UHGV virus genome: UHGV-0126759
Reading direction: 5' to 3' (one strand)
DNA from: a virus
Length of the DNA stretch: 16,087 nt
Made by a program: the position numbers and the translations under genes. Each line of letters starts with the position of its first letter. Within the stretch, counting starts at the first letter, position 1. The notes under the pieces were generated by a model. The model had not been told where the DNA came from. It made no database searches and saw only the letters and a list, made by a program, of their open reading frames with translations. Of the stretch, positions 1,145 through 16,087 are shown in pieces.

Positions 1145-1353
1145 TGAACTTACGTTGGCCGATCGCAGCTGCTGTGTTGTTCTGTATTTATATCGCCGTC
1201 AGTACCAGTACCCGCACTGCAGAACGTCGCGAGACCGCAACCAGTACGTTCAGAATGTGTATTGATCGAGTAGACCCGAACAATAGCACTTATCCCGACG
1301 CGGTGAACGCGTGTCGCAAAGCGGTTGCTGAGATATTGAAAGAGGAAAAATAA
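1144..1353 (+). CDS. Small protein (69 aa) with N-terminal hydrophobic segment, probable membrane anchor or signal peptide
   Basis: N-terminal stretch WPIAAAVLFCIYIAVSTS is hydrophobic. GGGGGA Shine-Dalgarno-like sequence upstream; start overlaps the upstream stop and its TAA overlaps the next ATG (TAATG at 1351-1355). Confidence 0.5.
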   Translation: MNLRWPIAAAVLFCIYIAVSTSTRTAERRETATSTFRMCIDRVDPNNSTYPDAVNACRKAVAEILKEEK

Positions 1354-3113
1354 TGGAAAACCTTACGCCGATTGAGATAGTGGCGCTATTCGACCGTTAC
1401 GTATATGGACAAACGCAGGCAAAGAAAATGCTGGCGATTGCGCTACGTAATCGATATCGTGCCAACAAACTCAACGTTGTGGACCGTATGTCGGTCCACA
1501 AACAGAACCTTTTAATAGAAGGTCCAACAGGCACGGGTAAAACGGCGTTGATGCGGGTACTGAAAACTAAATTCGGTTTACCTGTGCTGGAACTCGACAT
1601 GACCGCGTTTACAGAATCGGGCTACGTAGGCCGGGAAGTTACATCAATCGGCAAAGACTTAGCCGACTTAGCGCGTTCTGTCGAATTGCCCGACTGGTAT
1701 ATCGAACTGCGTACCAAACGTCGTGTCGAGACGGAAGTAGACGGTAATCGTCTTACTCGTGAAGAGTGGGAGCGTGAATCCCGTAAGGAAGTTGAACGCG
1801 AACTAGACGAGCGCGCAGCTGAGCGCCAGCTGCGGTATCAAGCTAAACGTGATCACACCGAACTATTACGGCGTCAGGGTATACTCGATCCGAAGGAGTT
1901 GTACGAAGAATACCAAGACATCTATTGTCTTCGCGCGTTTATGGTTGGCTATTGCCGTCAACACAATTTAACCTACGAAGACTTCGATATCTATTCCGTT
2001 ACACTCGGTGGTCGTACTGTGCAAGAATGGATAGATAAGATGTCGGAAATCGCAAGGGGTCTGTTCGGTGTCTCGTCAATTTCTGAACTGTTAAATAGTG
2101 AAGAATTTGAAAGCCAGATTGATAAGCTAATGTGCGGAGAAATACCGGACACGATTGGGTATATGGGTGAGATTATGTCGCTGATGGCTTTAGGCGAACA
2201 GATTGACTTATACGTTGATGCTGGTCAAAAGTTGATGTCGAATAACCTTCCGCTCTCATGTGCCGATGGCTCAGACTTCTACGATTTGTTCGACACGTTT
2301 AACGGCGACGACGAGGACGTCGAGCCGGCGGGCATCAATTGGTTCCCGATCGACGGTGCAGCGTTTACTATTCGCATGTTGTCTCGTTTGGAAGATCCTG
2401 AGAAGTGGTGTCGTTGGTGGGATGACGTGTTCGAAGGTTCTCCAGAATTCACCAAATACGCCGATGAACGGCTCTGGCATTACGAGATACCTGAAACAGT
2501 TGCACCAGAAAAAGAAACAGTCAGTCGCAAAGACCTCAAGAAACTACCCAACTGTAATGGACATGATTTCGTTGAGAACTTTGCGGTAGTGTTCCTGGAT
2601 GAGTTTGACAAACTTATCGAGGTTGATACACAACACTCTGCACGTGTATCCCGTAGTGGTGTGCAGCGCAGCTTGTTGAAAATGGTTGAAGGGGGTATTT
2701 ATCATGGCGTTGACACAACCAATGTGCTTTTTGTCGCTGCTGGGTCGTTTGCTCAAGCGCCTGTTTCTAAACTCATGGCAGAACTCCAGGGACGTTTTCC
2801 GTTAAGAGCGAAAATGTCTTCGCTGGACACCGAGGCACTGATTGCTATCTGTAAGTTGGATAACAGTGAGTTCCACGGCATGATTAAGTTGTTGAAAACC
2901 GAAGGGGTGGAAACGCAGTACGACATGGACACTTACACGTTCATCGCTGAGAAAACAATGGAAGCCAATGCTGTAGAGAACCTTGGTGCTCGTCGATTGG
3001 CGGATATTGTTCATCAGATCTTCTTACCTGCGTCTTACGACTCTTCGAAATATAAGCAATACGACATACGTGGTGAAACACTGCGTGGTCACGCTTGGTC
3101 AGAGAACGCGTAA
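1353..3113 (+). CDS. HslU/ClpX-family AAA+ unfoldase-like ATPase (586 aa) with an expanded insertion (I) domain
   Basis: Seen in sequence: Walker A GPTGTGKT (aa 57-64, nt 1521-1544), pore-loop GYVG (aa 90-93), Walker B VVFLDEFDK (aa 412-420, nt 2586-2612), SRSGVQRSLLKMVEGG box, LQGRFPLRA (Arg-finger region) and sensor-2 ENLGARRL. The N-terminus LTPIEIVALFDRYVYGQTQAKKMLAIALRNRYR is collinear with HslU as I recall it (MTPREIV...[21 protein letters not shown]). AGAGGA Shine-Dalgarno 8 nt upstream. Confidence 0.8.
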   Translation: MENLTPIEIVALFDRYVYGQTQAKKMLAIALRNRYRANKLNVVDRMSVHKQNLLIEGPTGTGKTALMRVLKTKFGLPVLELDMTAFTESGYVGREVTSIGKDLADLARSVELPDWYIELRTKRRVETEVDGNRLTREEWERESRKEVERELDERAAERQLRYQAKRDHTELLRRQGILDPKELYEEYQDIYCLRAFMVGYCRQHNLTYEDFDIYSVTLGGRTVQEWIDKMSEIARGLFGVSSISELLNSEEFESQIDKLMCGEIPDTIGYMGEIMSLMALGEQIDLYVDAGQKLMSNNLPLSCADGSDFYDLFDTFNGDDEDVEPAGINWFPIDGAAFTIRMLSRLEDPEKWCRWWDDVFEGSPEFTKYADERLWHYEIPETVAPEKETVSRKDLKKLPNCNGHDFVENFAVVFLDEFDKLIEVDTQHSARVSRSGVQRSLLKMVEGGIYHGVDTTNVLFVAAGSFAQAPVSKLMAELQGRFPLRAKMSSLDTEALIAICKLDNSEFHGMIKLLKTEGVETQYDMDTYTFIAEKTMEANAVENLGARRLADIVHQIFLPASYDSSKYKQYDIRGETLRGHAWSENA

Positions 3114-3254: not shown

Positions 3255-3587
3255 ATGAAGAAAGTTTTAGTTCTGTTAGGCGCACTCGTTACGCCTATGG
3301 TTGTCCACGCTGCGGACAAACCACTCTTACTCGACCAGGATGTTTACGAACGTGTATTCCTGGAATGCGCTAAAACGTTTAACGGACCACAGAAGACAAC
3401 CTTTAACGATTTGGACGAAGCGTTAGAGGTCTGCCGTGACACTGCAAAAGAAATCGCGGTACGTCAAGGAACCCTCAAAATGGCGGTGGGAAGCAACTGG
3501 GAAGAAGTGCAGGTGATGGAAAAACCGGGTTACATGGTCGACCTGAACGCTAAGTTGATGCGTGAAGAAAAACAGAAACAAAAGTGA
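3255..3587 (+). CDS. Small secreted or periplasmic protein (110 aa) with Sec-type signal peptide
   Basis: N-terminus MKKVLVLLGALVTPMVVHA followed by ADK has the classic n-h-c signal-peptide layout with an AXA-like cleavage site (VHA/AD). The mature part is charged and ends in a Lys-rich tail (EEKQKQK). Confidence 0.6.
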   Translation: MKKVLVLLGALVTPMVVHAADKPLLLDQDVYERVFLECAKTFNGPQKTTFNDLDEALEVCRDTAKEIAVRQGTLKMAVGSNWEEVQVMEKPGYMVDLNAKLMREEKQKQK

Positions 3588-3595
3588 GGTAAAGG

Positions 3596-4597
3596 ATGAC
3601 GAAGCTCGTTTCGTTTTCAGCAGGGTTGGATTCCACCTGGATAATGTATCAACTGTTGTGCAAAGCACCGGCCAATGAAGCGCGACATGTCCGTCCTGCA
3701 TATTTCTCCATGTGGAATGGAGGTAACGCGAACTTCATGGAAATTCTTTGTAGTGTGGCCATTGTTGAACGGCTAATGGACAGATACCACGCACAAACCG
3801 ATCGCGTTACATGGGCGGTGCTCGGGGAAGAGAACTTTCCGCCTGTCGTTAGCGCCGGATACGCTAACGGCTGGTCGCCTCTGGTTCAGCAAGGCAATGT
3901 TGTTAACGGCCTCGCTAAACTGATGTGCGACATTACACGCAAACAGCACCACGCCTATGCAGTTGTTGGCTGGAATAAGCTAGATGCGTTGGAGAATAGT
4001 CTAGAGCTGGGAGATTGGACATTAGACGAGTACGCACGCTTAAAGAACCTTTATAGCGAACTGATGTATTTCCAAGATCATGCCGGTCGCGTTCCGCCGC
4101 TTCTAACACCTGCGTGGGATAAAGAGAAACTGGAAATGTGGCAGGAGTTGCCGGAAGACATTCGTAGATTGGTGCAGGTCAGTAACTACAACAACTACGA
4201 ATTCGCGATAGACCGTGAGAATAACGTGCTCATCGTGTATGCCCATCCGTCGGCAAAGTCGCAGAATTATCGTAGTCTTGGTATTACACCGTCTGTGGGA
4301 TGGGAGATTAAAATCAACGATGCTTACAGACGGGTATGGTGTTCTGCTCTCGGTAGTGCTATTTCTGCTATGGGTTTGGACGTACCGACTTTTGCTAACT
4401 TTAAGGACCCGAAAAGAAATCACACAACCTTTACGGTAACTGAAGATACTGAAAGACTATTTATCACGTCATTTACAGCAGAAGAGTGGTGCGAATATGC
4501 ACCGCATTTTAAAGCGCTTCAGGAGAAAGAAAAAGAGAGAGCGAAAAATGCCAAAGCAAGTAAAGCTGGACGCTCCAACTGGCGAAGTGGCGGATAG
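3596..4597 (+). CDS. Divergent PP-loop (ATP pyrophosphatase)-like protein, 333 aa
   Basis: N-terminal strand-loop-helix KLVSFSAGLDSTWIMYQLL resembles the SGGxDS PP-loop signature of QueC, TilS and NadE-type enzymes, but with Ala replacing the second Gly. No C-terminal Cys cluster as in QueC. GAGGT Shine-Dalgarno upstream. The family call is motif-based only. Confidence 0.55.
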   Translation: MTKLVSFSAGLDSTWIMYQLLCKAPANEARHVRPAYFSMWNGGNANFMEILCSVAIVERLMDRYHAQTDRVTWAVLGEENFPPVVSAGYANGWSPLVQQGNVVNGLAKLMCDITRKQHHAYAVVGWNKLDALENSLELGDWTLDEYARLKNLYSELMYFQDHAGRVPPLLTPAWDKEKLEMWQELPEDIRRLVQVSNYNNYEFAIDRENNVLIVYAHPSAKSQNYRSLGITPSVGWEIKINDAYRRVWCSALGSAISAMGLDVPTFANFKDPKRNHTTFTVTEDTERLFITSFTAEEWCEYAPHFKALQEKEKERAKNAKASKAGRSNWRSGG

Positions 4598-4611
4598 CTG
4601 AAAAACGGAAT

Positions 4612-4929
4612 TTGCCAAAGCTGGATATAACAGTTAAGTCGGGGCTGAAATATTTGGCACCCGACTGGGACTTTCTGATGGACTACAAGAAGTCTGACAA
4701 AGGCCCCGACGCAGAAGCTGCGTATACCAAACGCTACCTGCAGAAACTTAGTCGGTTGTTTGATGAAGACACTGATAAGTTGATAGAGATTCTCCGCCAG
4801 GGCGAGGTCGTACTAATGTGCTATTGCCCACCGGGGAAATTCTGTCATCGCCACTTGCTAGTTTCTTACCTTATTGAAATCGGTGAGTGGTTCGGTTATG
4901 AAGTAATTTACATGGGCGAGTTATCGTAA
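4612..4929 (+). CDS. Small Cys/His-motif protein (105 aa), possibly DUF4326-like
   Basis: C-terminal motif LMCYCPPGKFCHRHLL (C-x-C-x5-C-H-x-H) resembles, from memory, the CWCxPxxCHxDVL signature of DUF4326 proteins. The start is TTG at 4612 with a weak Shine-Dalgarno; an alternative ATG lies at 4678. Confidence 0.45.
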   Translation: MPKLDITVKSGLKYLAPDWDFLMDYKKSDKGPDAEAAYTKRYLQKLSRLFDEDTDKLIEILRQGEVVLMCYCPPGKFCHRHLLVSYLIEIGEWFGYEVIYMGELS

Positions 4930-4940
4930 GGAGAGTCATC

Positions 4941-5336
4941 GTGAAATTGATTATGCCTAAAACCGTTCCCAATCAGGATATGGTTACGACTACACTGTTT
5001 TCTGAATCATTACGTAACTCTGTACGTCAGACCGCTTCACGTCTAGACGTGGCAGTTGAAGAACTCGACCCAGAAGTCTTCATGAAGTATGCGTTTATTG
5101 CAGAAGGTTACGCGATCGCCCTGAGTTATGCGCGGTATGTCGATGACGTGACAGAAGCTAAACGTTATTTAGAAGGCTGTTGTCAAGTTTTCCGTGAAGA
5201 AATCACCGAGATGGAGATGGTTGACCGTGGCTTACCTGAATTTGTAAAGGTGGGTTACGATAAGCTGTTGCAATCCATCGCGGATGAGATCAAACGTCGC
5301 GGGTTAACTGTGGTGCACAGCTCTACACTGCACTAA
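4941..5336 (+). CDS. Hypothetical protein, 131 aa
   Basis: GTG start 7 nt downstream of an AAGGAG Shine-Dalgarno (4928-4933); its TAA stop at 5334-5336 is followed directly by terminator T1. Confidence 0.55.
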   Translation: MKLIMPKTVPNQDMVTTTLFSESLRNSVRQTASRLDVAVEELDPEVFMKYAFIAEGYAIALSYARYVDDVTEAKRYLEGCCQVFREEITEMEMVDRGLPEFVKVGYDKLLQSIADEIKRRGLTVVHSSTLH

Positions 5337-5350
5337 CACCGTACGAGTAG

Positions 5351-5390
5351 GCTACCACACGATCATATGTGTGGTAGCTTATTTTTTTTT
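5351..5390 (+). terminator. Rho-independent terminator T1
   Basis: Perfect 10-bp stem GCTACCACAC (5351-5360) and GTGTGGTAGC (5369-5378) with 8-nt loop, followed by TTATTTTTTTTT (5379-5390). Sits between the stop of the 4941-5336 gene and the start of the next gene. Confidence 0.8.
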
Positions 5391-5406
5391 GTTTCTGGAG
5401 GAAATT

Positions 5407-7356
5407 GTGACGACGAAACCTATAATCCGCAACTTTGCCGAGTTGGTCGAATATACTACAGAGACAATGCTAACCTTGGATCTTCCTGAGGTCTACGACC
5501 CGAGTGTAAGTCTGTCCGTAGATCAGAATGTAGACTACGATTATATCGGGGTCGTGACGGGAAAAAGCAACGTTACCAACCCCACAAACCACAAAGTGGT
5601 AATGTATGCTTACACCACCGGGGAGTATTTGCTAGGTGAAGCCCCTCTTGATGCCTCAGGGGCGTTTTCTTTTAAACGTACGTGGGCCGGTGCTAAACAG
5701 TTTAGACTAATCAATATATCAACTGGAGAGTGGATTACAACCCTGGAATTTCCTCTATGTATACGCAGTTACTTAATGCCCAGCGACGCCGAACCTGATG
5801 TTATCAAGGTAATGAAAGATCGATGTTACACGTACGATCAGGCGGTGGCAGCTTTAGCACTAATGGCTATAGATCACGGAGCCGTTGAGAAATATGTTAA
5901 AGGGCTTTGTGCTTTAGTGGACACAGACGGTGGTATTAAGTTTTATGTAAATCGTTTGTCTGCCAAGTCTCCACGTAACTATTATCGGATGGGCAATGTG
6001 GCATGGGTATTATACGCCCTTGCTTTTTACCTAGAGAAATATCCAAACGGCACCTTAGTTGGTCAAGTTAGGAGTAAGCTCACTCTTTCGCTCAGTTGGG
6101 TTGAAGGATTCCGTGTTAGCGATGTAAACGATAGGAGATACGGCTTATATCTCGGGGGTAAAGGCCGCTTTATTACAAACCCTGATGGTACGCAAACGTT
6201 CGATGAAAATTATGTAGCACCGTTCTCGGCCTTGGAACATTGTGTTGATTTGTGGTTTTTATTCGAGATATTGGGAAGGGTTGGATTTGATAGCTACGCC
6301 GCGAAGGCGATAGAGTTAGGCAATCTAATTTTAGACAAGTTTTGGATAGAAGAAGAGGGTCGATTGCGTCAAGGCGTTAGAGCCGATGTCGATGACGACG
6401 CTGCCGCTTTAGACCAGTCAAGCTGGGGTGGATTGTTTATCGCTAAGTTCAAACCGGAGCTGGCTTCGCAGTGTCACAGCTACATGGAAAAGTTTCGAGC
6501 AGTAACGTCCGAATGCAGCGGTTACACACCTTATAAGGTTGAATTGGGTTATCCGACTGCGGTCGACGGCGTTTGGGTTGAAGGAACTGCCGGTGTTGCC
6601 TTATTTGAAAGACAATTAGGGAACGATACTAGGGCAATTGAACTAATTAATAATATCGATGTTCTCCTGGGTGAACACGGTTATCGCGATTCGTGCGATG
6701 ACCCAACTTACGACACTTTACCTAATTGGCCGTCGACAACAAATACCGCCTGGGTGATTTTGGCCTGCGTACCAAGCGGCTTTTGGTTAGTTGATAAACC
6801 TGCACTGAATGCAAAATACAGCCCCCCTAATCGTTTTACACCTGACCTTAGATTAGACTCCAAGGGCCTCGTTGTGGCGTTAATTAATCACGATAACGGA
6901 TTGTCATTATCGCCTGACGAGATTGTAATAAGCGGAGTGGGGCCTATCGACTTAGGTGTTGAAAGTACCCGTACCGCACAAGCGTACATTGCAAAAGCAC
7001 GTAAACCTAACGGCAAGAAGGTTACCGTCTATTACGACCGTCTAGTTGCTAATAAGATTATCGACCCGCAAGGACCGATACTGGTTACTGTAGCTCCCGG
7101 CGACACCTATGCTGATTTAGCGACAGTTGTAAACCAGTTATGCGGTTTAAACTTGTCACGTGAAGACATCTCGACGGGGGTTATTACACCAACAAACGAG
7201 CCGTTGATTGCACCGATGAGTGACGATTCGCCGGCTTGGACGGCTACCTTTACATTCACGGCGTTTAATGAAAAAGAAGCTGTGGCAAGTCTGGATGAAG
7301 AAACTGTTTTATGCATCGGTGATGATGCAGTGTTAACCTACGGAGACGATGCATAA
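5407..7356 (+). CDS. Large hypothetical protein (about 649 aa from GTG 5407); aromatic-rich, possibly a helical-repeat carbohydrate-active enzyme with a C-terminal beta-rich domain
   Basis: The ORF track starts at 5371, but that would run through the terminator stem and T-tract; GTG at 5407 is in frame and lies 6 nt after a GGAGG Shine-Dalgarno (5396-5400). Helix-pair segments such as YDQAVAALALMAIDHG and NVAWVLYALAFYLEKYPNG resemble (alpha/alpha)-toroid glycosidase or lyase folds, which is an inference. Stop TAA overlaps the next ATG. Confidence 0.65.
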   Translation: MTTKPIIRNFAELVEYTTETMLTLDLPEVYDPSVSLSVDQNVDYDYIGVVTGKSNVTNPTNHKVVMYAYTTGEYLLGEAPLDASGAFSFKRTWAGAKQFRLINISTGEWITTLEFPLCIRSYLMPSDAEPDVIKVMKDRCYTYDQAVAALALMAIDHGAVEKYVKGLCALVDTDGGIKFYVNRLSAKSPRNYYRMGNVAWVLYALAFYLEKYPNGTLVGQVRSKLTLSLSWVEGFRVSDVNDRRYGLYLGGKGRFITNPDGTQTFDENYVAPFSALEHCVDLWFLFEILGRVGFDSYAAKAIELGNLILDKFWIEEEGRLRQGVRADVDDDAAALDQSSWGGLFIAKFKPELASQCHSYMEKFRAVTSECSGYTPYKVELGYPTAVDGVWVEGTAGVALFERQLGNDTRAIELINNIDVLLGEHGYRDSCDDPTYDTLPNWPSTTNTAWVILACVPSGFWLVDKPALNAKYSPPNRFTPDLRLDSKGLVVALINHDNGLSLSPDEIVISGVGPIDLGVESTRTAQAYIAKARKPNGKKVTVYYDRLVANKIIDPQGPILVTVAPGDTYADLATVVNQLCGLNLSREDISTGVITPTNEPLIAPMSDDSPAWTATFTFTAFNEKEAVASLDEETVLCIGDDAVLTYGDDA

Positions 7357-7826
7357 TGGCAACTGTAGTCAAAAAGAAACGTTTGCATGAACTCGATTCT
7401 TACGACGGTGATAAGTCGAGCGCAGTAGCGCTTATTAGCGTTGATGAAAAGGAGTACAAACTTCCTCTCAGTGAAATCGGCGGCGGGGCAGATGCAAACC
7501 CTATCCAAAACTTATCCGGTGCTGACGGTATCGTTGAAATAGATCCCAATATTGCGGACGACTTCATTATCCGTTTAGGTGACCCCACCACTGCGCTTTC
7601 TATCACACCTATTACCGACCCGGTTCCGGGTACGCGATATGAATTATTACTGACGCTACGTCAGGGTACCGGTGCAAACAAAATCACCTGGCCGGCTTCG
7701 GTTAAATGGCCTAACGGTGCAGAACCTCCGTTATCGTACACGCTAGACGCCGAGGATGTGTTGTCTTTGTCATCTACGGATGGCGGTACAACCTGGAAAG
7801 GGGCCATTTGCGGAACAGGATACTAA
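7356..7826 (+). CDS. Hypothetical Gly/Pro/Thr-rich protein, 156 aa
   Basis: ATG overlaps the upstream stop (TAATG at 7354-7358). Motifs such as ITWPASVKWPNGAEPPLSYTL and STDGGTTWKG suggest a beta-rich binding or fibre-like domain; no family assigned. Confidence 0.55.
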   Translation: MATVVKKKRLHELDSYDGDKSSAVALISVDEKEYKLPLSEIGGGADANPIQNLSGADGIVEIDPNIADDFIIRLGDPTTALSITPITDPVPGTRYELLLTLRQGTGANKITWPASVKWPNGAEPPLSYTLDAEDVLSLSSTDGGTTWKGAICGTGY

Positions 7827-7829
7827 GCC

Positions 7830-10800
7830 ATGCGCAAATTTAAAATCTCTGCTAAACGACATGCGTTGAACTATGCGATGTCGCTGGCTTACGGACATCA
7901 GGACTTTGTTCGCCGCAATACCGGTCTCACAAACGACGCCCACAATGACCATTATCTGATTAACCCAGAAGGGGTGCTATCTAATAACCGGCATTTCATT
8001 GCTGACTCCATGGCAGTGTATCAACCTAATGGTGACGCCACCACAGAAGGTCAATCGTTGCTGATTATTGGCTACTGTCACATGTACATTGCTACCAAAA
8101 ACCAGATGTGGTTAGATGCGGCGATTCGTGCATGGGAAGCGTACGCTACCTACTATTACGCAGGTCAGGCCATTCCTGAGTCACCGCAACGTTGGATTTG
8201 TAACTGGCTAGTTAACGGTAAAGAACCGGTGCTGTCAGACTATCCGGTGCATCCGACCGAGCCAACCCACGGTGGTTACAAGTGTGTACCGGTAACGTTT
8301 ACGAACGGGCGTTGTCAGATACCCCAAGGCGCACCGTTCTTTGGTGAATATCTGAACAATTTCTTTTCTGCGCATCGTGGCCATCCTACCTGGGGCGCGG
8401 TTAATGCTGACGTACAGAAAATTAAGGAATCGGAAGACGGGTTAATTGACTGGTCTAAAGTCCCTGATTACTTAATCACCAATCCAGAGAAACCTTACGA
8501 TGTAAAAGCGTGGGTAGACTGGAACAGGATGTTAAACGACCCAACCGGATATACCCCAATATGGGGTGGTTCTACCTCGAAAGGTCCGCGGTACGAACCT
8601 GACTGGTTTGTTGTGTGGACGGGTGAGAAGGTTCAAGACGGCGAAGTCATCGAATCCGGTTTACCTGATGCCCAGAAAGGAACCGTACAATTAAAGGACA
8701 CCAGTATTAACGGTGTATATTTGATTAACTACGCTTCCCAGGTACCTGTAGAGCACGGCGGATATTTGTTTGACCGCAATGAGCCGTGGCACAACCGTCC
8801 GGTTCATACCCCGTTAAAAGGGTCTGTTAACCAGATGGGTAACGCGGCAGATGCGGAAGTGTGGTTTATTGATGCCTGTTATCTCCTCTGGCGTATCACA
8901 GGTGAACCGCGCTATAAAGCCGCACTAGACTCGGTGTTCTATACAGCACACGAATACACGTATATCGATGCGAAGGACAAGTTTTTCCGTCGCTCTAAGT
9001 TAGCCGAAACACCATTTACAGATGGTATCTCGTACGACTATAAATACCCCAGCACCGTTGAGGTCGCTTACAGTCGTGATGAAAATGGTGACATTGTGCT
9101 CCGTTCTGAGGAAGCTGTGCAGAACTTTATGGAACAGCAAGCCGTGCGTTTCAGGATAAACAGTCAATCGAAGTTACGTGTGACGTATGGCGGTGTTTGC
9201 GACAACGGTGATGCGCTTGCGTGTAAAGTGATGGTGGATATCAACCCCGTTAAAGCGGATACTGAAGAAGTAAACTGGTACGGCTGTACGCTTCCAGGAT
9301 CAACATCGATGGAAGTAAAACAGCATGACATCGGTTTAGGGCATCTGGCCAGAATGACTAATCCGGCCAACGGCGAAGATTACATCATTGCCGATGCGCG
9401 AGCATGTTCAGATTACGGTGGGTGTACGTGGCAGGAGAAGTTTGAGAGCAACATCTACGATGGTCGTTCAGGCACAATCGTAGAAGCGTTATTCCCGAAC
9501 GACGATGCGGGCTTCATTATCGGTTTCTGGTTAACTGATGCTGGAGTTGCGCCCCCACAGTCAATTGTCTATCGTGCTGATGCCGATTTCAACTTCCGTT
9601 TCGAAGATACCAAGAAGTGGCGTTGGTGGTGGATGTTGCCCGCGACTAACGGGGAATGGAAACAGGTTATTATTCGCCCTGAAGACGCAACACTCTCGGG
9701 CTATCAACCTGACCACGATACTGATGTCGAAACAAAACCGTCTGCGCCAAACTACACAACTATCGATCAGGTAACCATACTGCCCGATTCGGCTGTGGAG
9801 AATGCGCACTTTAGCTGGTATTGCGTAAACGATGTTCCGCCACTGTTTAATGCAGATGATGGCTGGACATTAACGTTTCGCATCGCAATTCGGGGAGGTT
9901 CTGCATTTACGGGTAAAGTGGGCGATTGTACGATAAAAGATTACCGTCTTGACTCGCTCGCGTATTGTCCAGGAACGATACCGTTCTCGAACATTTATTC
10001 GGAAGGAACGTATCAGCTAGGTGCATGGCACGGGATGCCGTATCCTGGCTATCAGTATCCGTTTATGTACACCATACACACCGATGATCGCTACAAAGTC
10101 TGGCTCTTAAATCAGATTCGGTTTATGCACGATTCACAAACCAACTACCAGGCGCAGCTAGGTGAGTTAGGTCCAGGTTGTGCGGCGTATATTTGGAACC
10201 GTTGGGATAACTACACTTACGGACCGGCAGATACGTGGACAACGTTCCATTGGGGAGATGGACATCCGTGGGCAGGTTATCAGCCGCGCGCGTATAACGC
10301 CGCTGCGCGTTGTTGGTACGAATTAGCTGTGCGTGGTAAAGAGGTTCCACCAGAGCTAGTAGAGTACGTTGAAAATTGGGCTAAGTGGCTCGTAGGGTTC
10401 TTAGACCGCTTTGACAACCACACGCCGAATGAATTCCCTACGGCACCAAATAAACCGGTGTGGGTAGAGAATGATTTCACAGCACATATGTGTGCGCTCT
10501 GGATAGCAGGCAGCGCTTATGCGGCAATGGCTGGCTGTAAAGTGGAAGGGCTGAACCGGATTATGGATATGGGGATGAAAGAGATGGGTGACAACTTCAC
10601 CGTCACAGACATTCCAGGAAAAGCCATTAACGGTGCCTGGTCTCCGTGGGCAAACCCTACCACGGATAACGGTCAGGCTTTTGGGTTTTATACTGGAGAA
10701 GCGATGCGTGCAATCGGGTTGTATCTCCTCTATAAAGAACACGGCCCAGGACATGATATTTATCGTGACTTGGCAATACCCGACCACACAACAGCTTCAC

Positions 10801-10847
10801 TCGATATAACGTTTACTATCCCAGACGATCCGCTCGAAACTAATTAA
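7830..10847 (+). CDS. Large hypothetical protein, 1005 aa; Trp/Tyr-rich, possibly a polysaccharide-active enzyme or virion-associated depolymerase
   Basis: Uninterrupted 3-kb ORF starting 3 nt after the upstream stop. Very aromatic-rich, with helix-pair motifs (LLIIGYCHMYIATKNQMWLDAAIRAWEAYATYYY; VWFIDACYLLWRITGEPRYKAALDSVFYTAHEY; FGFYTGEAMRAIGLYLLYKEHG). The function is inferred only from composition and motif style. Confidence 0.7.
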   Translation: MRKFKISAKRHALNYAMSLAYGHQDFVRRNTGLTNDAHNDHYLINPEGVLSNNRHFIADSMAVYQPNGDATTEGQSLLIIGYCHMYIATKNQMWLDAAIRAWEAYATYYYAGQAIPESPQRWICNWLVNGKEPVLSDYPVHPTEPTHGGYKCVPVTFTNGRCQIPQGAPFFGEYLNNFFSAHRGHPTWGAVNADVQKIKESEDGLIDWSKVPDYLITNPEKPYDVKAWVDWNRMLNDPTGYTPIWGGSTSKGPRYEPDWFVVWTGEKVQDGEVIESGLPDAQKGTVQLKDTSINGVYLINYASQVPVEHGGYLFDRNEPWHNRPVHTPLKGSVNQMGNAADAEVWFIDACYLLWRITGEPRYKAALDSVFYTAHEYTYIDAKDKFFRRSKLAETPFTDGISYDYKYPSTVEVAYSRDENGDIVLRSEEAVQNFMEQQAVRFRINSQSKLRVTYGGVCDNGDALACKVMVDINPVKADTEEVNWYGCTLPGSTSMEVKQHDIGLGHLARMTNPANGEDYIIADARACSDYGGCTWQEKFESNIYDGRSGTIVEALFPNDDAGFIIGFWLTDAGVAPPQSIVYRADADFNFRFEDTKKWRWWWMLPATNGEWKQVIIRPEDATLSGYQPDHDTDVETKPSAPNYTTIDQVTILPDSAVENAHFSWYCVNDVPPLFNADDGWTLTFRIAIRGGSAFTGKVGDCTIKDYRLDSLAYCPGTIPFSNIYSEGTYQLGAWHGMPYPGYQYPFMYTIHTDDRYKVWLLNQIRFMHDSQTNYQAQLGELGPGCAAYIWNRWDNYTYGPADTWTTFHWGDGHPWAGYQPRAYNAAARCWYELAVRGKEVPPELVEYVENWAKWLVGFLDRFDNHTPNEFPTAPNKPVWVENDFTAHMCALWIAGSAYAAMAGCKVEGLNRIMDMGMKEMGDNFTVTDIPGKAINGAWSPWANPTTDNGQAFGFYTGEAMRAIGLYLLYKEHGPGHDIYRDLAIPDHTTASLDITFTIPDDPLETN

Positions 10848-10853
10848 GTGTAT

Positions 10854-10897
10854 ACCAGCTATCCTTCGGGGTGGCTGGTACGCTTTATTTTATTTCA
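10854..10897 (+). terminator. Rho-independent terminator T2
   Basis: Stem ACCAGC (10855-10860) and GCTGGT (10875-10880) enclosing an inner CC-TTCG-GG tetraloop hairpin, followed by a T-rich tract (CGCTTTATTTTATTTC). It lies 7 nt after the stop of the 1005-aa gene. Confidence 0.7.
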
Positions 10898-10974
10898 GAT
10901 AGATGTTATCTCAGTGAACCTCTGAAATTTACGTTTCAATCAGAACTTATGTCATGTATTAAGGAGCAATTAAA

Positions 10975-11307
10975 ATGTCCAAAGTCTATCACATAGCGGT
11001 ATTGCGTCAGGCAACTGACCTTGATGGTGACGGTGAACTTCGAATGCAGGAAGCCATTCTGAGCACTGTTAAAGAACTTAACCAAGCAAACAATTTCGAT
11101 GCACGCTTCGAAGCGTTGCCTGTAAGCCGTAACGCTTTCTACGGCAGTCAAATCCTGGCAACCCAGTTTGCGATGGCTTTAAGTGACTTGCGCAATAATC
11201 CTAGTCCTGAAACCGCGGCGAAGATGAACAAACTGTCGTTATGGATGAATAACCTGGATGCTCCCGCAACATCCATTGTAAATGGTTTGGGGGTGGTTAA
11301 TGGTTAG
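10975..11307 (+). CDS. Hypothetical protein, 110 aa
   Basis: TTAAGGAG Shine-Dalgarno followed 9 nt later by ATG; first gene after terminator T2. Confidence 0.6.
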   Translation: MSKVYHIAVLRQATDLDGDGELRMQEAILSTVKELNQANNFDARFEALPVSRNAFYGSQILATQFAMALSDLRNNPSPETAAKMNKLSLWMNNLDAPATSIVNGLGVVNG

Positions 11308-11635
11308 AGTAATCCGTGTTGCCAGACCAATGCGTCTCAATAGGTCGCCAATGATAAATCGTGATATCAGTGAAGCTGTAAAACAGTTGTCGAATATCGA
11401 CGGTTACACCTTTAAAGTGATAACACTGTACGACTACCCAGAAGGCAAAGTTCCGCAAGAGGCGCTGGATAAATTCGTTAATGTATTAGACGATTGCCTT
11501 AAGAGCCCAACGGACGTAAATCTTATCAAACTAAACACCATGTCCCTTGAGCTGTGCCGGCTGCGTAAAATGGGCATTCATGCTCGCATCGGTAAAGGTG
11601 ACCAAACGTTGGCCGAATACTGGGCTAAACAATAA
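11300..11635 (+). CDS. Hypothetical protein (about 111 aa from ATG 11300; alternative ATG at 11282)
   Basis: ATG at 11300 is preceded by a G-rich Shine-Dalgarno-like GGGGGTGG and overlaps the upstream stop (ATGGTTAG); the 11282 ATG has no Shine-Dalgarno. Confidence 0.55.
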   Translation: MVRVIRVARPMRLNRSPMINRDISEAVKQLSNIDGYTFKVITLYDYPEGKVPQEALDKFVNVLDDCLKSPTDVNLIKLNTMSLELCRLRKMGIHARIGKGDQTLAEYWAKQ

Positions 11636-11662
11636 GCTATTTTAAATCCTAAGGAGCATTAA

Positions 11663-12181
11663 GTGAATATTACCATGAACCTGTACACCAAACGGGAACG
11701 TAACGTTTTAGAATCTGGCGTTGCCCCAGAAGTATTGGCTGCGGGGGATATTAGTATCGACCCACTGAAAGTGAAAGTCGCGGAACTGTTCCCTCGTGAT
11801 GAATGGGACATCTGGTATTTCCGTTGTTCGTCGGTATTGAATGCAATCAAACAACTGTCTGATTATCAGCCTGGCCCGTACATCGGTACCTGGCACTGGT
11901 ACGTCCCACGCACCCCAAACTTCCTTTACCTGCACGACGATGATAAACGTACTCATATTCGCACTGTAGCGACGCCTGCGCGTTTGGAGCGTTATCTGGA
12001 GCTAATCCACGACCGGCCTCGTAACGAGCTGCAGAGCATCGTAGAGGTGCTCAGACAGGTACCTTTAGACGGTATACTGGAACTGGACATGAAAATTGCT
12101 GATCGGCCTCGCCACTACTGGGAATTTTCCTGGGTAGATGCGAAATATGAAAACCTTAACGTTATCTATCTGAAGCGTTAA
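11663..12181 (+). CDS. Hypothetical protein, 172 aa
   Basis: GTG start 6 nt after an AAGGAG Shine-Dalgarno (11651-11656); an alternative ATG lies at 11675. No recognisable domain. Confidence 0.6.
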   Translation: MNITMNLYTKRERNVLESGVAPEVLAAGDISIDPLKVKVAELFPRDEWDIWYFRCSSVLNAIKQLSDYQPGPYIGTWHWYVPRTPNFLYLHDDDKRTHIRTVATPARLERYLELIHDRPRNELQSIVEVLRQVPLDGILELDMKIADRPRHYWEFSWVDAKYENLNVIYLKR

Positions 12182-12191
12182 GGGGGACAGG

Positions 12192-12512
12192 ATGTTGAAC
12201 TGGTTACTTGCGCTGATTAACAAGCGACAAAAACAACTGTACGAAGAAAACCGAGAATTGGCTGCCGCTAACCGTCGTGTACAGGCCGATAACTTGCAGT
12301 TAAGACACGACCTCGCGAAACTGGGTGTTAACGCGAGTAGGCTTTGCACGCACATTAGCCGGTGCCACGATATCATCGAACGTATTGGACACTACCATCT
12401 TACGTCTCCTGCGCGTCGCGTCTATGACGCGGCCGTCCAGGGATTGAAAGATACCAGGAATGTGTACGACGAGATGTTAGAAGAGTTTAGCAAACGTGAG
12501 GATAAATACTAA
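12192..12512 (+). CDS. Hypothetical protein, 106 aa, probably coiled-coil at the N-terminus
   Basis: AAGGGGGA Shine-Dalgarno 5 nt upstream of ATG; heptad-like charged N-terminus (QKQLYEENRELAAANRRVQADNLQLRHDLAKL); stop overlaps the next start (TAATG). Confidence 0.6.
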   Translation: MLNWLLALINKRQKQLYEENRELAAANRRVQADNLQLRHDLAKLGVNASRLCTHISRCHDIIERIGHYHLTSPARRVYDAAVQGLKDTRNVYDEMLEEFSKREDKY

Positions 12513-12895
12513 TGGAAATGCCAACGAACACCGACTTAGCACTGGCAATCGAACACATGAAAAACCATCAGCTGACGTTACTGAACGCAAGCACAGAAGG
12601 GCAACGTCAAGGGTATGCGCTCGTTGCAAAAGCAGCGTTAGAACTTAACAAGATTCTACTCGCTAAACTTTACGGGCTGGAAAACAGCGTGCTCCATGCG
12701 TCGCACCTGGGCGAAGCCAGCGAGTTAGTTACGAATGTGCGGCTGTATGCAAGTCGTGAAATGGAACGTTTAACCAACGAATGGAATGTCCAGTGTAACG
12801 GCGAGCGTGCTGATAAAGATCCGCGTAAAGTCGCACTGACGCCGGGCGTGTACATCAAAGACGGCACCATTGACGAATACAGCGGATTTAACTGA
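12512..12895 (+). CDS. Hypothetical protein, 127 aa
   Basis: Translationally coupled to the upstream gene (TAATG); GAGGA Shine-Dalgarno 9 nt upstream. Confidence 0.6.
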   Translation: MEMPTNTDLALAIEHMKNHQLTLLNASTEGQRQGYALVAKAALELNKILLAKLYGLENSVLHASHLGEASELVTNVRLYASREMERLTNEWNVQCNGERADKDPRKVALTPGVYIKDGTIDEYSGFN

Positions 12896-14446: not shown

Positions 14447-15250
14447 ATGTTAAAGCCACGCAAACAGAAAAGATTACAGTTTGTCAAAATACTGCATCCA
14501 CGATCACGCCGTGTCGTAGGCGGACGTCTCTACGTGGGTAAACACCGTAGTCGTCTTATCACCTGGTCGGCAATGGCCAACGTAGCCACCCAACTCCAGG
14601 CAATGGTTGAAGACCGTTGCCAGTTAAAAGGGGATTTCTTTCAAGAGAAGAAACCCTATCGTGATATCTTCCGTACACTAAAAGCGTGCTGGGTACTCAG
14701 CTGGGTGCCTGGCCGCGAACAACTTTATTTTCTGCGTAAGTTCCCACGCCCTATGCCGAAGGAAAACATTAGCGTTTTCTTAGACAAACTAAAACGCTTT
14801 AATGACATCGGCATAAACGCTAATAAAGAGCAGGTTTCTGCTACAGTAGCAGCCCGAAAACACTTACGCGATTATGTGGCCGATCGAGATGTTGAGTTCG
14901 CTTATATGACGCCGACTGTACCGCTGCTAAACGGTGATGCATTGAAAGCGAAGATGGAAGAGATCGCGTTGAAGTTTCCTAACATCAGACACATCGCACC
15001 AGACGCGGTACTACAGCTGAACACTGAAGGCTGCACGCGTTTACCGACAGTCTCTGACACGGTGTTAGTATCAACACCTGATGTTCCTGATGGAAAGTCG
15101 TTCCTTGAAATGATAAAGAAACGTACAGAGGGTGGATATCAACCGATCTTTCTGGATTCCCTTTCACAACATCCTGAAGTAGAACAAGAATTTAACATGA
15201 ACACTAACAGCCCTTACGACTCCCTATACAAGGACGATAATGATGCTTAA
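14447..15250 (+). CDS. Hypothetical protein, 267 aa, basic N-terminus MLKPRKQKRL
   Basis: TAAGGAG Shine-Dalgarno 8 nt before ATG; stop TAA at 15248-15250 overlaps the start of the next gene. Confidence 0.65.
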   Translation: MLKPRKQKRLQFVKILHPRSRRVVGGRLYVGKHRSRLITWSAMANVATQLQAMVEDRCQLKGDFFQEKKPYRDIFRTLKACWVLSWVPGREQLYFLRKFPRPMPKENISVFLDKLKRFNDIGINANKEQVSATVAARKHLRDYVADRDVEFAYMTPTVPLLNGDALKAKMEEIALKFPNIRHIAPDAVLQLNTEGCTRLPTVSDTVLVSTPDVPDGKSFLEMIKKRTEGGYQPIFLDSLSQHPEVEQEFNMNTNSPYDSLYKDDNDA

Positions 15251-15668
15251 GCCTAAGAAACGTAAAGATGGTGCGGTCATTTTCTCTCCGAGAATCGCTG
15301 TAGCAGTTGGTAAGAAATTACTGGTCCAGGACGGTAAGTGGGTCAGTGACGGATTCAGTCAGTACACCTCGCTATGCATGTCTTCCGAGATGAATCAGAT
15401 GCACGGGAAGAAAGTACGTGACCGACGATCTCAGATGCCAAAAGTTATCCGTGTTGTGGCCGGCTGGTATAAGCGATACATGAAAAAGAACTTCCCACAC
15501 GCAGCGCCGCCGTTTGAAGAAGGGTCTTTTGTTCGTACAGAACCCACCGAAGCGGGTGGCGAATTGCCGGTGCGTACCGGCACGGCGTATTCGACGCTGA
15601 CTTCCTTGTGTCGTCAGTCGTACGAAAAGCAGAAGGCGTTGAAGGACACTCTACTCCACATCAACTAG
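15240..15668 (+). CDS. Hypothetical protein, 142 aa, basic N-terminus MMLKPKKRKDG
   Basis: Tandem ATGATG at 15240-15245 lies 5 nt after an AAGGA Shine-Dalgarno (15230-15234) and overlaps the upstream gene by 11 nt. Followed by terminator T3. Confidence 0.6.
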   Translation: MMLKPKKRKDGAVIFSPRIAVAVGKKLLVQDGKWVSDGFSQYTSLCMSSEMNQMHGKKVRDRRSQMPKVIRVVAGWYKRYMKKNFPHAAPPFEEGSFVRTEPTEAGGELPVRTGTAYSTLTSLCRQSYEKQKALKDTLLHIN

Positions 15669-15704: not shown

Positions 15705-15740
15705 ACCCTACTCCTTCGGGAGTAGGGTTTCTTCTTTTTT
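15705..15740 (+). terminator. Rho-independent terminator T3
   Basis: Perfect 9-bp stem CCCTACTCC (15705-15713) and GGAGTAGGG (15718-15726) with a TTCG tetraloop, followed by TTTCTTCTTTTTTTG. Confidence 0.8.
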
Positions 15741-15839
15741 TGCCTAGTCCGATTACAATTATTTTCAGATATATATTACTTAGGTGAGAGTTAACAATTA
15801 ACTCTTATCTAATCGACCATTATCTTAAGGAGTTTTAAC
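15741..15839 (+). promoter_or_regulatory. AT-rich inter-operon region, presumed promoter for the gene at 15840
   Basis: The roughly 100-bp region between terminator T3 and the next Shine-Dalgarno (AAGGAG at 15826-15831) is AT-rich and contains TTACAA, TATATAT and TTAACA elements, but I could not fit a convincing sigma-70 -35/-10 pair with 16-18 bp spacing. The element may depend on a phage-specific factor. Confidence 0.2.
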
Positions 15840-16087
15840 ATGTACATTCTGAATAACGAACTTACTAAATACGCTAGCAAAAACCCGATTATGATTTCTT
15901 TCCTAATCGTGATGGCGGCCAACAAACAAGACCCTAGCGAATTCACTACTGAGGTCTTCGAAGAGATTATCGCCAACGCCAAAGAAGCCACGTTCCAGAC
16001 CACAGAACCTACTCGCGACGAGTTCCCTCTAGGTGAAGCCGGCGATGTAATGTTTAACGACATGATTGCTTCGTACTACATCAATAG
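15840..16087 (+). CDS. Hypothetical protein, 3'-truncated by the window end (at least 82 aa)
   Basis: ATG at 15840 lies 8 nt after an AAGGAG Shine-Dalgarno; the frame stays open to the window end (MYILNNELTKYASKNPIMISFLIVMAANKQDPSEF...). It is absent from the ORF track only because no stop falls within the window. Confidence 0.6.
   Translation, partial: MYILNNELTKYASKNPIMISFLIVMAANKQDPSEFTTEVFEEIIANAKEATFQTTEPTRDEFPLGEAGDVMFNDMIASYYIN

Follow-up and report, generated by a model that had tools for sequence, protein, structure and literature searches.

The nearest described relatives of the locus reported here are found in large phages. Mass spectrometry of virions of phage SPN3US detected the proteins gp123 and gp124, neither of which is marked "Head", and recovered the 113.7-kDa gp124 at 48% sequence coverage (PMC5694885, Suppl. 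Table 1). Phage phi92 gp141 appears as a putative glycosidase in a review table that cites Schwarzer et al. 2012 (PMC5380687). For phage Goslar, it has been proposed that DUF7941 proteins join head-to-tail and so form long filaments surrounding the baseplate, some of them carrying carbohydrate-binding or glycoside-hydrolase domains after an N-terminal DUF7941. In the same work, Goslar gp22 was found to form filaments when purified, and modelling placed PhiKZ gp127, also a DUF7941 protein, in the outer baseplate (bioRxiv 10.64898/2026.04.21.720040). Here, we describe a three-gene unit at positions 5407 to 10847 of UHGV-0126759, a viral DNA stretch of 16,087 nucleotides (the window, meaning this whole stretch) from a human-gut metagenome scaffold, in which homologues of all these proteins are encoded next to each other.

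The window shares 95-98% DNA identity with genomes of Seoulvirus (SPN3US, SEGD1, SPLA and SPFM phages), the nucleus-forming, SPN3US-like jumbo phages of Salmonella and E. coli. Its genes 1, 2 and 3 correspond to SPN3US_0122, SPN3US_0123 and SPN3US_0124 (gp122, gp123 and gp124), and both the gene order and the flanking genes are conserved. In our judgment, the unit is probably, although by a moderate degree of confidence, the Seoulvirus gp122-gp123-gp124 host-recognition cassette, consisting of a tail-side gp124 with an enzyme-like barrel, gp123 as its adaptor, and a re-armed DUF7941 gene 1.

The borders of the unit are marked by two hairpins, T1 and T2 (Table 1), which have the top two plus-strand scores among the terminator-like sites of the window. 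T1 lies at the 3′ end of the upstream gene, directly ahead of the ribosome-binding site (RBS) of gene 1. The folding energies are −24.3 kcal/mol for T1 (z = −6.9) and −22.2 kcal/mol for T2 (z = −5.4), and none of 200 shuffled sequences folded equally well in either case. T1 is kept in SPN3US, and T2 is identical across four Seoulviruses. Judged by their sequence, both are putative intrinsic (factor-independent) terminators, that is, GC-rich hairpins followed by a U-run. They bracket exactly three genes (649, 156 and 1005 amino acids [aa]), all on the plus strand and with no others between T1 and T2, as an earlier sequence-only reading of this DNA had stated. The same reading was right about the 3-nt gap between genes 2 and 3, whereas the "1-nt spacing" that it gave for genes 1 and 2 is really an overlap of one base (TAATG). 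A sequence scan found no sigma-70-like promoter between T1 and gene 1, which would fit transcription by phage RNA polymerases or read-through.

Table 1. Features of the three-gene unit and its borders, in window coordinates.
Feature	Position	Strand	Description or basis
T1, hairpin and T-run	5345..5394 (stem 17 bp, 5345-5384)	+	Terminator scan, RNA folding
RBS of gene 1 (GGAGG), left recombination junction	5397..5401	+	SPN3US identity ends immediately 3′ of the RBS
Segment lacking a DNA counterpart	5402..6873	+	Replaces gp122 start and adds 472 codons; present in 0/37 matching Seoulvirus-type records
Gene 1	5407..7356	+	649 aa; chimeric DUF7941 protein, long form of SPN3US gp122
Gene 1 beta-sandwich ahead of barrel, aa 36-114	5512..5748	+	AlphaFold2, predicted local distance difference test score (pLDDT) >90
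Gene 1 predicted (alpha/alpha)6 barrel, aa ~130-460	5794..6786	+	AlphaFold2
Gene 1 DUF7941 module (N-terminal globular part and linker), aa 473-649	6823..7353	+	PF25613
Gene 2	7356..7826	+	156 aa; homologous to gp123 of SPN3US and gp140 of phi92; probably an adaptor or short fibre partnering gene 3
Gene 2 conserved C-terminal domain, aa ~60-156, with TWPxSVKWPNG...P and DGGTTW	7533..7823	+	Alignment, hmmsearch
Gene 3	7830..10847	+	1005 aa; 3-nt spacer after gene 2; tail-associated, discontinuous (alpha/alpha)6 barrel (predicted)
Gene 3 first barrel hairpin, aa 72-109, with invariant TEGQS (E73, codon 8046-8048)	8043..8156	+	Model, alignment
Gene 3 beta-rich insertion between barrel hairpins 1 and 2, aa ~120-330	8187..8819	+	DSSP on model
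Gene 3 second barrel hairpin, aa 340-375, with NAADAEVW (D341, codon 8850-8852)	8847..8954	+	Model, alignment
Gene 3 beta-sandwich (jelly-roll-like) domains within barrel, aa ~400-705	9027..9944	+	Model
Gene 3 barrel hairpins 3-6, aa 756-971	10095..10742	+	Model
T2, hairpin and T-rich tail TTTATTTTATTT	10853..10895 (stem 12 bp, TTCG loop, 10853-10880)	+	Terminator scan, RNA folding

The gene 3 protein is 99.6% identical to SPN3US gp124 and, over its full length, 41% identical to phi92 gp141; phi92 fibre III (gp147), also considered as its homologue, was rejected in favor of gp141. Its family (phrog_2871) occurs in 541 phage records, about 1% of sequenced phage genomes, and its carriers range from jumbo and other large phages (Seoulvirus, Erwinia jumbo phages and 350-kb E. 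coli phages) through phi92-like, rV5-like and SSE121-like myophages, 85-kb and 53-kb phages and Vibrio phages to T7-like podophages. Among the homologues there are fusions with Tail_P2_I, a baseplate protein, or with Gp77, a fibre-tail adaptor. Relative to mass, the spectral counts of gp124 (0.64) and of the portal protein (0.93) have the same order of magnitude, which suggests that gp124 has a low copy number in the virion. The family is also unusually conserved for a receptor-binding protein, suggesting that its target is conserved among Gammaproteobacteria.

The AlphaFold2 model of the gene 3 protein, built with 45 homologues (pLDDT 89.8, predicted template modelling score 0.86), contains an (alpha/alpha)6 barrel with the fold of glycoside hydrolase family 8 (GH8) and clan GH-M. 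In a Foldseek search, the model matched family GH48 and carbohydrate-binding module family 11 (CBM11) at a probability of 1.0, the CBM11 match being 6r31 with a template modelling score of 0.50 relative to the target. Residues 518-675 form a beta module that is also present in other tail proteins (phrog_23426, E = 9e-46). Two motifs of the barrel that are invariant in the family recall E. coli BcsZ, a GH8 enzyme: ATTEGQS (E73 and Q75 invariant) resembles BcsZ TTSEGQS, in which E55 is the catalytic acid, and NAADAEVW (D341 invariant) resembles the GH8 signature SASDGDVW of BcsZ (D116). Both E73 and D341 are located at the starts of barrel helices, and their spacing fits GH8 once the insertion of ~210 aa is discounted. 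We suggest that the gene 3 protein may work like a clan GH-M enzyme, and claim no family membership for it.

Gene 1 was also predicted to contain an (alpha/alpha)6 barrel, of the GH15/clan GH-L fold, so that structure prediction bore out the proposal, made from the letters alone, that both large proteins contain (alpha/alpha)-toroids. All four motifs on which that proposal and the description of the small protein were built were found (gene 1 aa 143; gene 3 aa 93 and 951; gene 2 aa 142), and the first three map to barrel helices of the AlphaFold2 models (142-154 in gene 1; 92-109 and 952-971 in gene 3). No right-handed parallel beta-helix catalytic domain, as in tailspike depolymerases, was found in the unit. 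The richness in aromatic residues that had been called unusual is real yet moderate: Trp, Tyr and Phe together make up 13.7% of the gene 3 protein (Trp 3.8%) and 12.5% of the N-terminal 472 aa of the gene 1 protein, compared to 9.4% in the other 19 open reading frames (ORFs), and the enrichment is missing from the C-terminal 177 aa of the gene 1 protein (only 5.6%). The middle protein is indeed rich in Gly, Pro and Thr (26.4% versus 14.5% elsewhere).

This middle protein, the product of gene 2, shares 100% identity with its SEGD1 counterpart, a homologue of gp123, and 59% with a further homologue (P0235). Its C-terminal domain of ~100 aa recurs in the small protein upstream of each gp141-like gene that was examined, and was recovered by hmmsearch in five other phage lineages (E = 2e-20 to 5e-29). 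The small and the large genes are adjacent in six lineages (SPN3US, phi92, SSE121, rV5, rivia and the podophage Atoyac1), and the two families co-occur closely, with 537 phage records carrying the gene 2-like domain and 541 carrying gene 3, and with nearly identical counts per genus. The gene 2 homologues differ at their N-termini, where Phage_T7_tail is found in Atoyac1 and Tail_spike_N in rV5 and SSE121, and in phi92, SSE121 and rV5 their genes lie within baseplate gene clusters. Because the C-terminal domain stays constant while the N-terminal attachment domain varies, the gene 2 protein is probably an adaptor. It had been read earlier as a beta-rich binding module, and in Pfam its only match was to BNR, below threshold; given the varying attachment domains, a tail-attachment adaptor is likelier than a simple binding module.

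The best PDB match of the gene 2 family profile was PhiKZ gp127 (9xqd_0), at a non-significant E of 0.73 and with ...P..VKWP..N...P in common. This likeness may be due to chance, or may mean that the adaptor domain is distantly linked to DUF7941. In eleven deposited SPFM genomes (LR535901, LR535903-LR535908, LR535911-LR535913 and LR535917; SPFM1, 5-10, 12, 14, 15 and 20), the gp123 homologues are odd-length fragments, and the window is covered to only ~15% by 40 short alignments at ~99% identity. The combination of short, nearly identical pieces and a fragmented gp123 suggests many indel errors in these deposits and not real divergence.

Gene 1 differs most from its SPN3US counterpart. It starts with GTG, 5 nt past GGAGG and just where SPN3US gp122 has its ATG, and the gene callers applied to metagenomes picked the identical start. 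High DNA identity to SPN3US resumes at about codon 17 of gp122, and the C-terminal 177 aa share 94% identity with the full-length SPN3US gp122 (BLASTP, 165/175). This part matches PF25613 (DUF7941) at aa 481-629 with 56.4 bits against a cut-off of 27 (E = 4e-15), covering only profile positions 4-161 of 276, and SPN3US gp122 similarly covers positions 3-162 of 276. In SPN3US, gp138-144 (L013, 94-6171) are DUF7941 proteins of full length (E = 1e-65 to 6e-87). This identifies the "paralog family B" of Ali et al. 2017 as DUF7941 and confirms, at the level of sequence, their guess that gp122 is a member.

The acquired part of gene 1 has relatives in prophages. Residues 6-470 share 58-60% identity with the part located after PF08400 in prophage tail-fibre proteins of E. 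coli, Citrobacter, Yersinia and Salmonella, and one of these fibre genes sits downstream of J and Lom in an Stx2k phage. The module is also 53% identical to a gene of the 348-kb phage ph0011. A Pfam search found no match to the PF08400 attachment domain itself in gene 1. In the gene 1 model, residues that are invariant in the wider family lie where a barrel helix starts or next to such a start (D138, R139, Y141-D144, E277, H278 and D281, and likewise D330, D336, S339-G342, E392, G393 and D428); among these, E277 and E392 are candidates, and candidates only, for the catalytic glutamates of the barrel.

The fused architecture is not restricted to the window. A 644-aa protein (P0001) has the same architecture and 59% identity, and is encoded in the receptor-binding gene cluster of a related phage, whose neighbouring genes specify a gp38-like protein and a long tail fibre of the T4 type. 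At the right junction, gene 1 contains a stretch that resembles the start of gp122 but has diverged from it (RFTPDLRLDSKGLV versus RYQPDLTLSSKALV), which suggests that the recombination donor already carried the fused architecture. Two other proteins (P0268 and P0278) combine unrelated N-terminal cargo with a C-terminal DUF7941, and this order of parts therefore recurs. An origin of the long gene 1 as an assembly chimera was considered and ruled out by the occurrence of the exact 649-aa protein on four contigs from at least three metagenome assemblies. On the evidence of these alignments, gene 1 is a new variant of a DUF7941 protein, re-armed with an enzyme-like module common to the side tail fibres of temperate prophages.

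A Logan contig of a related phage from SRR5831594 (L005) has a different host-range gene set downstream of its DUF488 gene (4046-12555), composed of genes for a short DUF7941 protein, a 1532-aa T4-like long tail fibre (Gp34_trimer, Peptidase_S74), a Gp38_N protein and a 644-aa homologue of gene 1. No gp124-like gene was found in this locus. The differing gene sets of this contig and of the window make the locus look like a hot spot for the exchange of receptor-binding genes.

We infer the following scheme for the cassette. It would be read as one late transcript that ends at T2. The gene 3 product would be a low-copy, tail-side protein with a GH8/GH48-like barrel of the inverting-glycosidase type, interrupted by beta-sandwiches, of which at least one domain resembles a carbohydrate-binding module, and it would bind, and probably cleave, a surface glycan conserved among Gammaproteobacteria. 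The lineage-specific N-terminus of the gene 2 product would plug into the baseplate, while its conserved C-terminal domain would hold or partner the gene 3 protein. The DUF7941 module, to which gene 1 belongs, has been proposed to form flexible filaments that surround the baseplate. Gene 1 appears to have gained by recombination an N-terminal beta-sandwich and a GH15-like (alpha/alpha)6 barrel, a module that elsewhere forms the distal end of the side tail fibres of E. coli lambdoid prophages, and that may add a second glycan specificity.

Several results weigh against this scheme. Pfam assigned neither barrel to a CAZy family, giving no match for gene 3 at E ≤ 1 and only DUF7941 for gene 1, and NCBIfam likewise had no match for either barrel. 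Single-sequence and profile searches of PDB sequences gave nothing significant for any of the three proteins. In particular, gene 3 showed no significant sequence or profile similarity to GH8, the gene 1 barrel showed no sequence-profile match to GH15/clan GH-L, and an hhalign comparison of the gene 3 family with E. coli BcsZ returned a probability of 0.2, which is why GH8 membership is not claimed. The resemblance of the gene 3 motifs to GH8 is short and confined to the sequence level, the DUF7941 part of the gene 1 model is of low confidence, and the contact between the gene 2 and gene 3 proteins is deduced only from the co-occurrence of their genes. The short gp122 was not detected in SPN3US virions by the published mass spectrometry, DUF7941 paralogues of SPN3US persist in a tailless mutant and were called head proteins (PMC5694885), and phi92 gp140 has been said to resemble the head spike gp52 of phage Pa223 (PMC13450770). 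Of the earlier suggestion of carbohydrate-active proteins, what stands is the resemblance of the predicted folds to glycoside hydrolases, and what does not is a place in any CAZy family by sequence profile. The suggestion that the proteins are virion-associated is similarly backed for genes 2 and 3, through their homologues gp123 and gp124, and is weakened for gene 1 by the undetected gp122.

As a first alternative, the barrels might be non-catalytic, serving either in lectin-like receptor binding or as structural baseplate elements that keep an ancestral glycosidase fold. We regard this as unlikely. Across 45 homologues with 45-84% identity, many polar and acidic residues are invariant and are found at helix starts, as is typical of active-site funnels; this conservation is well above what is usual for purely binding tips, and the GH8-like motifs at E73 and D341 also speak against it.

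The literature is in conflict over the location of DUF7941 proteins, which are placed in the head by SPN3US proteomics and at the baseplate by the work on Goslar and PhiKZ. A second alternative is that the gene 1 product, and possibly also that of gene 2, is attached to the head and forms capsid fibres or spikes that bind glycans. The family B members that remain in the tailless mutant and are classed as head proteins, together with the likening of phi92 gp140 to the Pa223 spike, argue for such a location. However, the SPN3US table does not label gp123 or gp124 as head proteins, PhiKZ gp127 was modelled in the outer baseplate and Goslar gp22 forms filaments once purified, and gene 2-like proteins carry the N-terminal domain of T7 tail fibres or Tail_spike_N and are encoded in the baseplate clusters of phi92, SSE121 and rV5. 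On balance, we find a head location improbable, and prefer the baseplate-side cassette.

It is equally hard to credit, and we would put it a shade lower, that the long gene 1 is a by-product of recombination that is absent from virions or contributes nothing to them, with only genes 2 and 3 functional in host recognition. This would agree with the failure to detect the short gp122 in SPN3US virions and with the absence of the extension from all 37 matching phage records. Yet the 649-codon frame is intact, the identical protein is present on contigs of three metagenome assemblies, and gene 1 has kept all of the invariant, active-site-like residues of the wider family. Moreover, another phage encodes a protein of the same architecture at 59% identity, and the arrangement of N-terminal cargo and C-terminal DUF7941 recurs with other cargo domains. 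Finally, a non-virion module that remodels the host surface, as the sequence-only reading had offered as its alternative, or that aids lysis or release, is very improbable: although glycosidase-like folds can serve such roles in general and gp122 was unseen in SPN3US virions, gp123 and gp124 occur in virions, homologues bear tail and baseplate annotations and are sited among such genes, and none of the three proteins has a hydrophobic, signal-peptide-like start (judged by eye).

Returning to the host-recognition cassette, we tentatively propose, as a possibility that we hold with less than even confidence, that gene 1 records a traffic of enzymatic receptor-binding modules between lambdoid side tail fibres and the DUF7941 network, with cargo carried at either end, and that genes 2 and 3 are a portable adaptor-enzyme pair. 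If so, the "fibre cloud" would serve as a modular scaffold, and one recombination would suffice to re-arm it with new glycan specificities; the gene 2/gene 3 system, in use from podophages up to jumbo phages, would attack a glycan that is conserved throughout the Gammaproteobacteria. The phage depolymerases that have been characterised by experiment are mostly beta-helix, beta-propeller or triple-helix proteins, and the (alpha/alpha)6 fold was not found among the characterised ones in the literature searched. In the window, two different predicted (alpha/alpha)6 barrel modules lie within one host-recognition cassette. The gp141/gp124 family and its gp140/gp123 partner extend from 40-kb podophages to 350-kb jumbo phages and form a known but uncharacterised cassette, and a literature search found no measured activity, solved structure or experimental work on the gp141/gp124 family. 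Should the barrels be active on a conserved envelope glycan, they would be of use as broad-spectrum tools and would help explain how multi-fibre phages (phi92, rV5 and SPN3US, for instance) get to the cell surface. With its chimeric structure, gene 1 is, in addition, a natural test case for the DUF7941 "fibre cloud" model and bears on the conflict between head and baseplate locations.

The remainder of the window also differs in places from SPN3US. A plus-strand gene at 1353-3113 encodes a 586-aa HslU/ClpX-like AAA+ ATPase (Pfam AAA_2 and AAA), which is also found in MET_P1_082_240, where it is annotated as hslU. At this position, SPN3US has a dissimilar 161-aa gene annotated as "head maturation protease", and these unrelated genes point to another mosaic spot in the locus. 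The ATPase gene is followed on the plus strand by a gene for a 110-aa protein (3255-3587), which has no family match and begins with a signal-peptide-like start (MKKVLVLLGALVTPMVVHA/AD), and which, judging from that start, may be a secreted or periplasmic phage protein. The 333-aa protein encoded at 3596-4597 (+) starts with ...VSFSAGLDSTW..., reminiscent of the SGGxDS motif of PP-loop ATP-pyrophosphatases, although Pfam gave nothing for it at E ≤ 0.01. The gene at 4612-4929 (+) encodes a member of the DUF488-N3a family (E = 1.9e-11) and is conserved upstream of the cassette in the window as well as in SPN3US and in the Logan contig. Near the other end of the window, a perfect 10-bp hairpin at 15705-15728 with T-runs on both strands has a terminator score in both directions, and separates the convergent ORFs 15240-15668 (+) and 15809-16063 (−).

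Compared with the known systems, the cassette is closest to SPN3US gp122-gp123-gp124, with which it shares locus, flanking terminators and gene order. It differs in gene 1: SPN3US gp122 has 177 aa, whereas gene 1 has 472 extra N-terminal residues that are absent from 37 of the 37 matching records. In phi92, gp140 and gp141 are likewise encoded by adjacent small and large genes that abut or overlap, and the gene 2 protein is 35% identical to gp140 (BLASTP, E = 3e-23). The window has the arrangement of the phi92-type cassette, in which a small protein with a WPxxVKW...DGGxTW C-terminal domain is followed by a gp141-like protein of ~900-1000 aa. The setting is different, however, as the phi92 pair lies within the baseplate cluster of a 148-kb myophage and the pair in the window within an isolated, terminator-bounded unit of a jumbo phage.

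With the DUF7941 proteins of the Chimalliviridae "fibre cloud" (Goslar gp22, gp23, gp86, gp92 and gp161; PhiKZ gp126 and gp127), gene 1 shares a module that scores above the Pfam threshold. As in Goslar gp86, gp92 and gp161, this DUF7941 is fused to a carbohydrate-enzyme-like domain, but in the opposite order, with the cargo N-terminal and DUF7941 C-terminal, and it is truncated as in Goslar gp23. Relative to lambdoid side tail fibres (e.g., phiSTEC1575-Stx2k gene 80), gene 1 has the region that follows PF08400 without the PF08400 anchor; the module is at the opposite end of the protein, and DUF7941 replaces the siphophage anchor.

Among structurally characterised enzymes, the gene 3 barrel is nearest to clan GH-M (CPF_2247, 3ren; CelA, 1cem; BcsZ), from which it differs in being split by ~500 aa of beta-domains and in lacking significant sequence similarity. 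The gene 1 barrel is nearest to GH15-type enzymes and MmpH (dextran dextrinase, 9ju0; MmpH, 7qsj; isomaltose glucohydrolase-like, 5z3a), at an identity of only 7-14% and with no profile match. Adaptor and tailspike systems also exist in podophages, with K1-5/SP6-type adaptors, and in the branched Tail_spike_N tailspike complexes of CBA120 and G7C. The gene 2 relatives follow the same plan, in which a small tail-attachment protein is combined with a separate large protein that is predicted to be carbohydrate-active; their partner, the gene 3 protein, is a predicted (alpha/alpha)6 barrel protein and not a beta-helix tailspike as in those systems.

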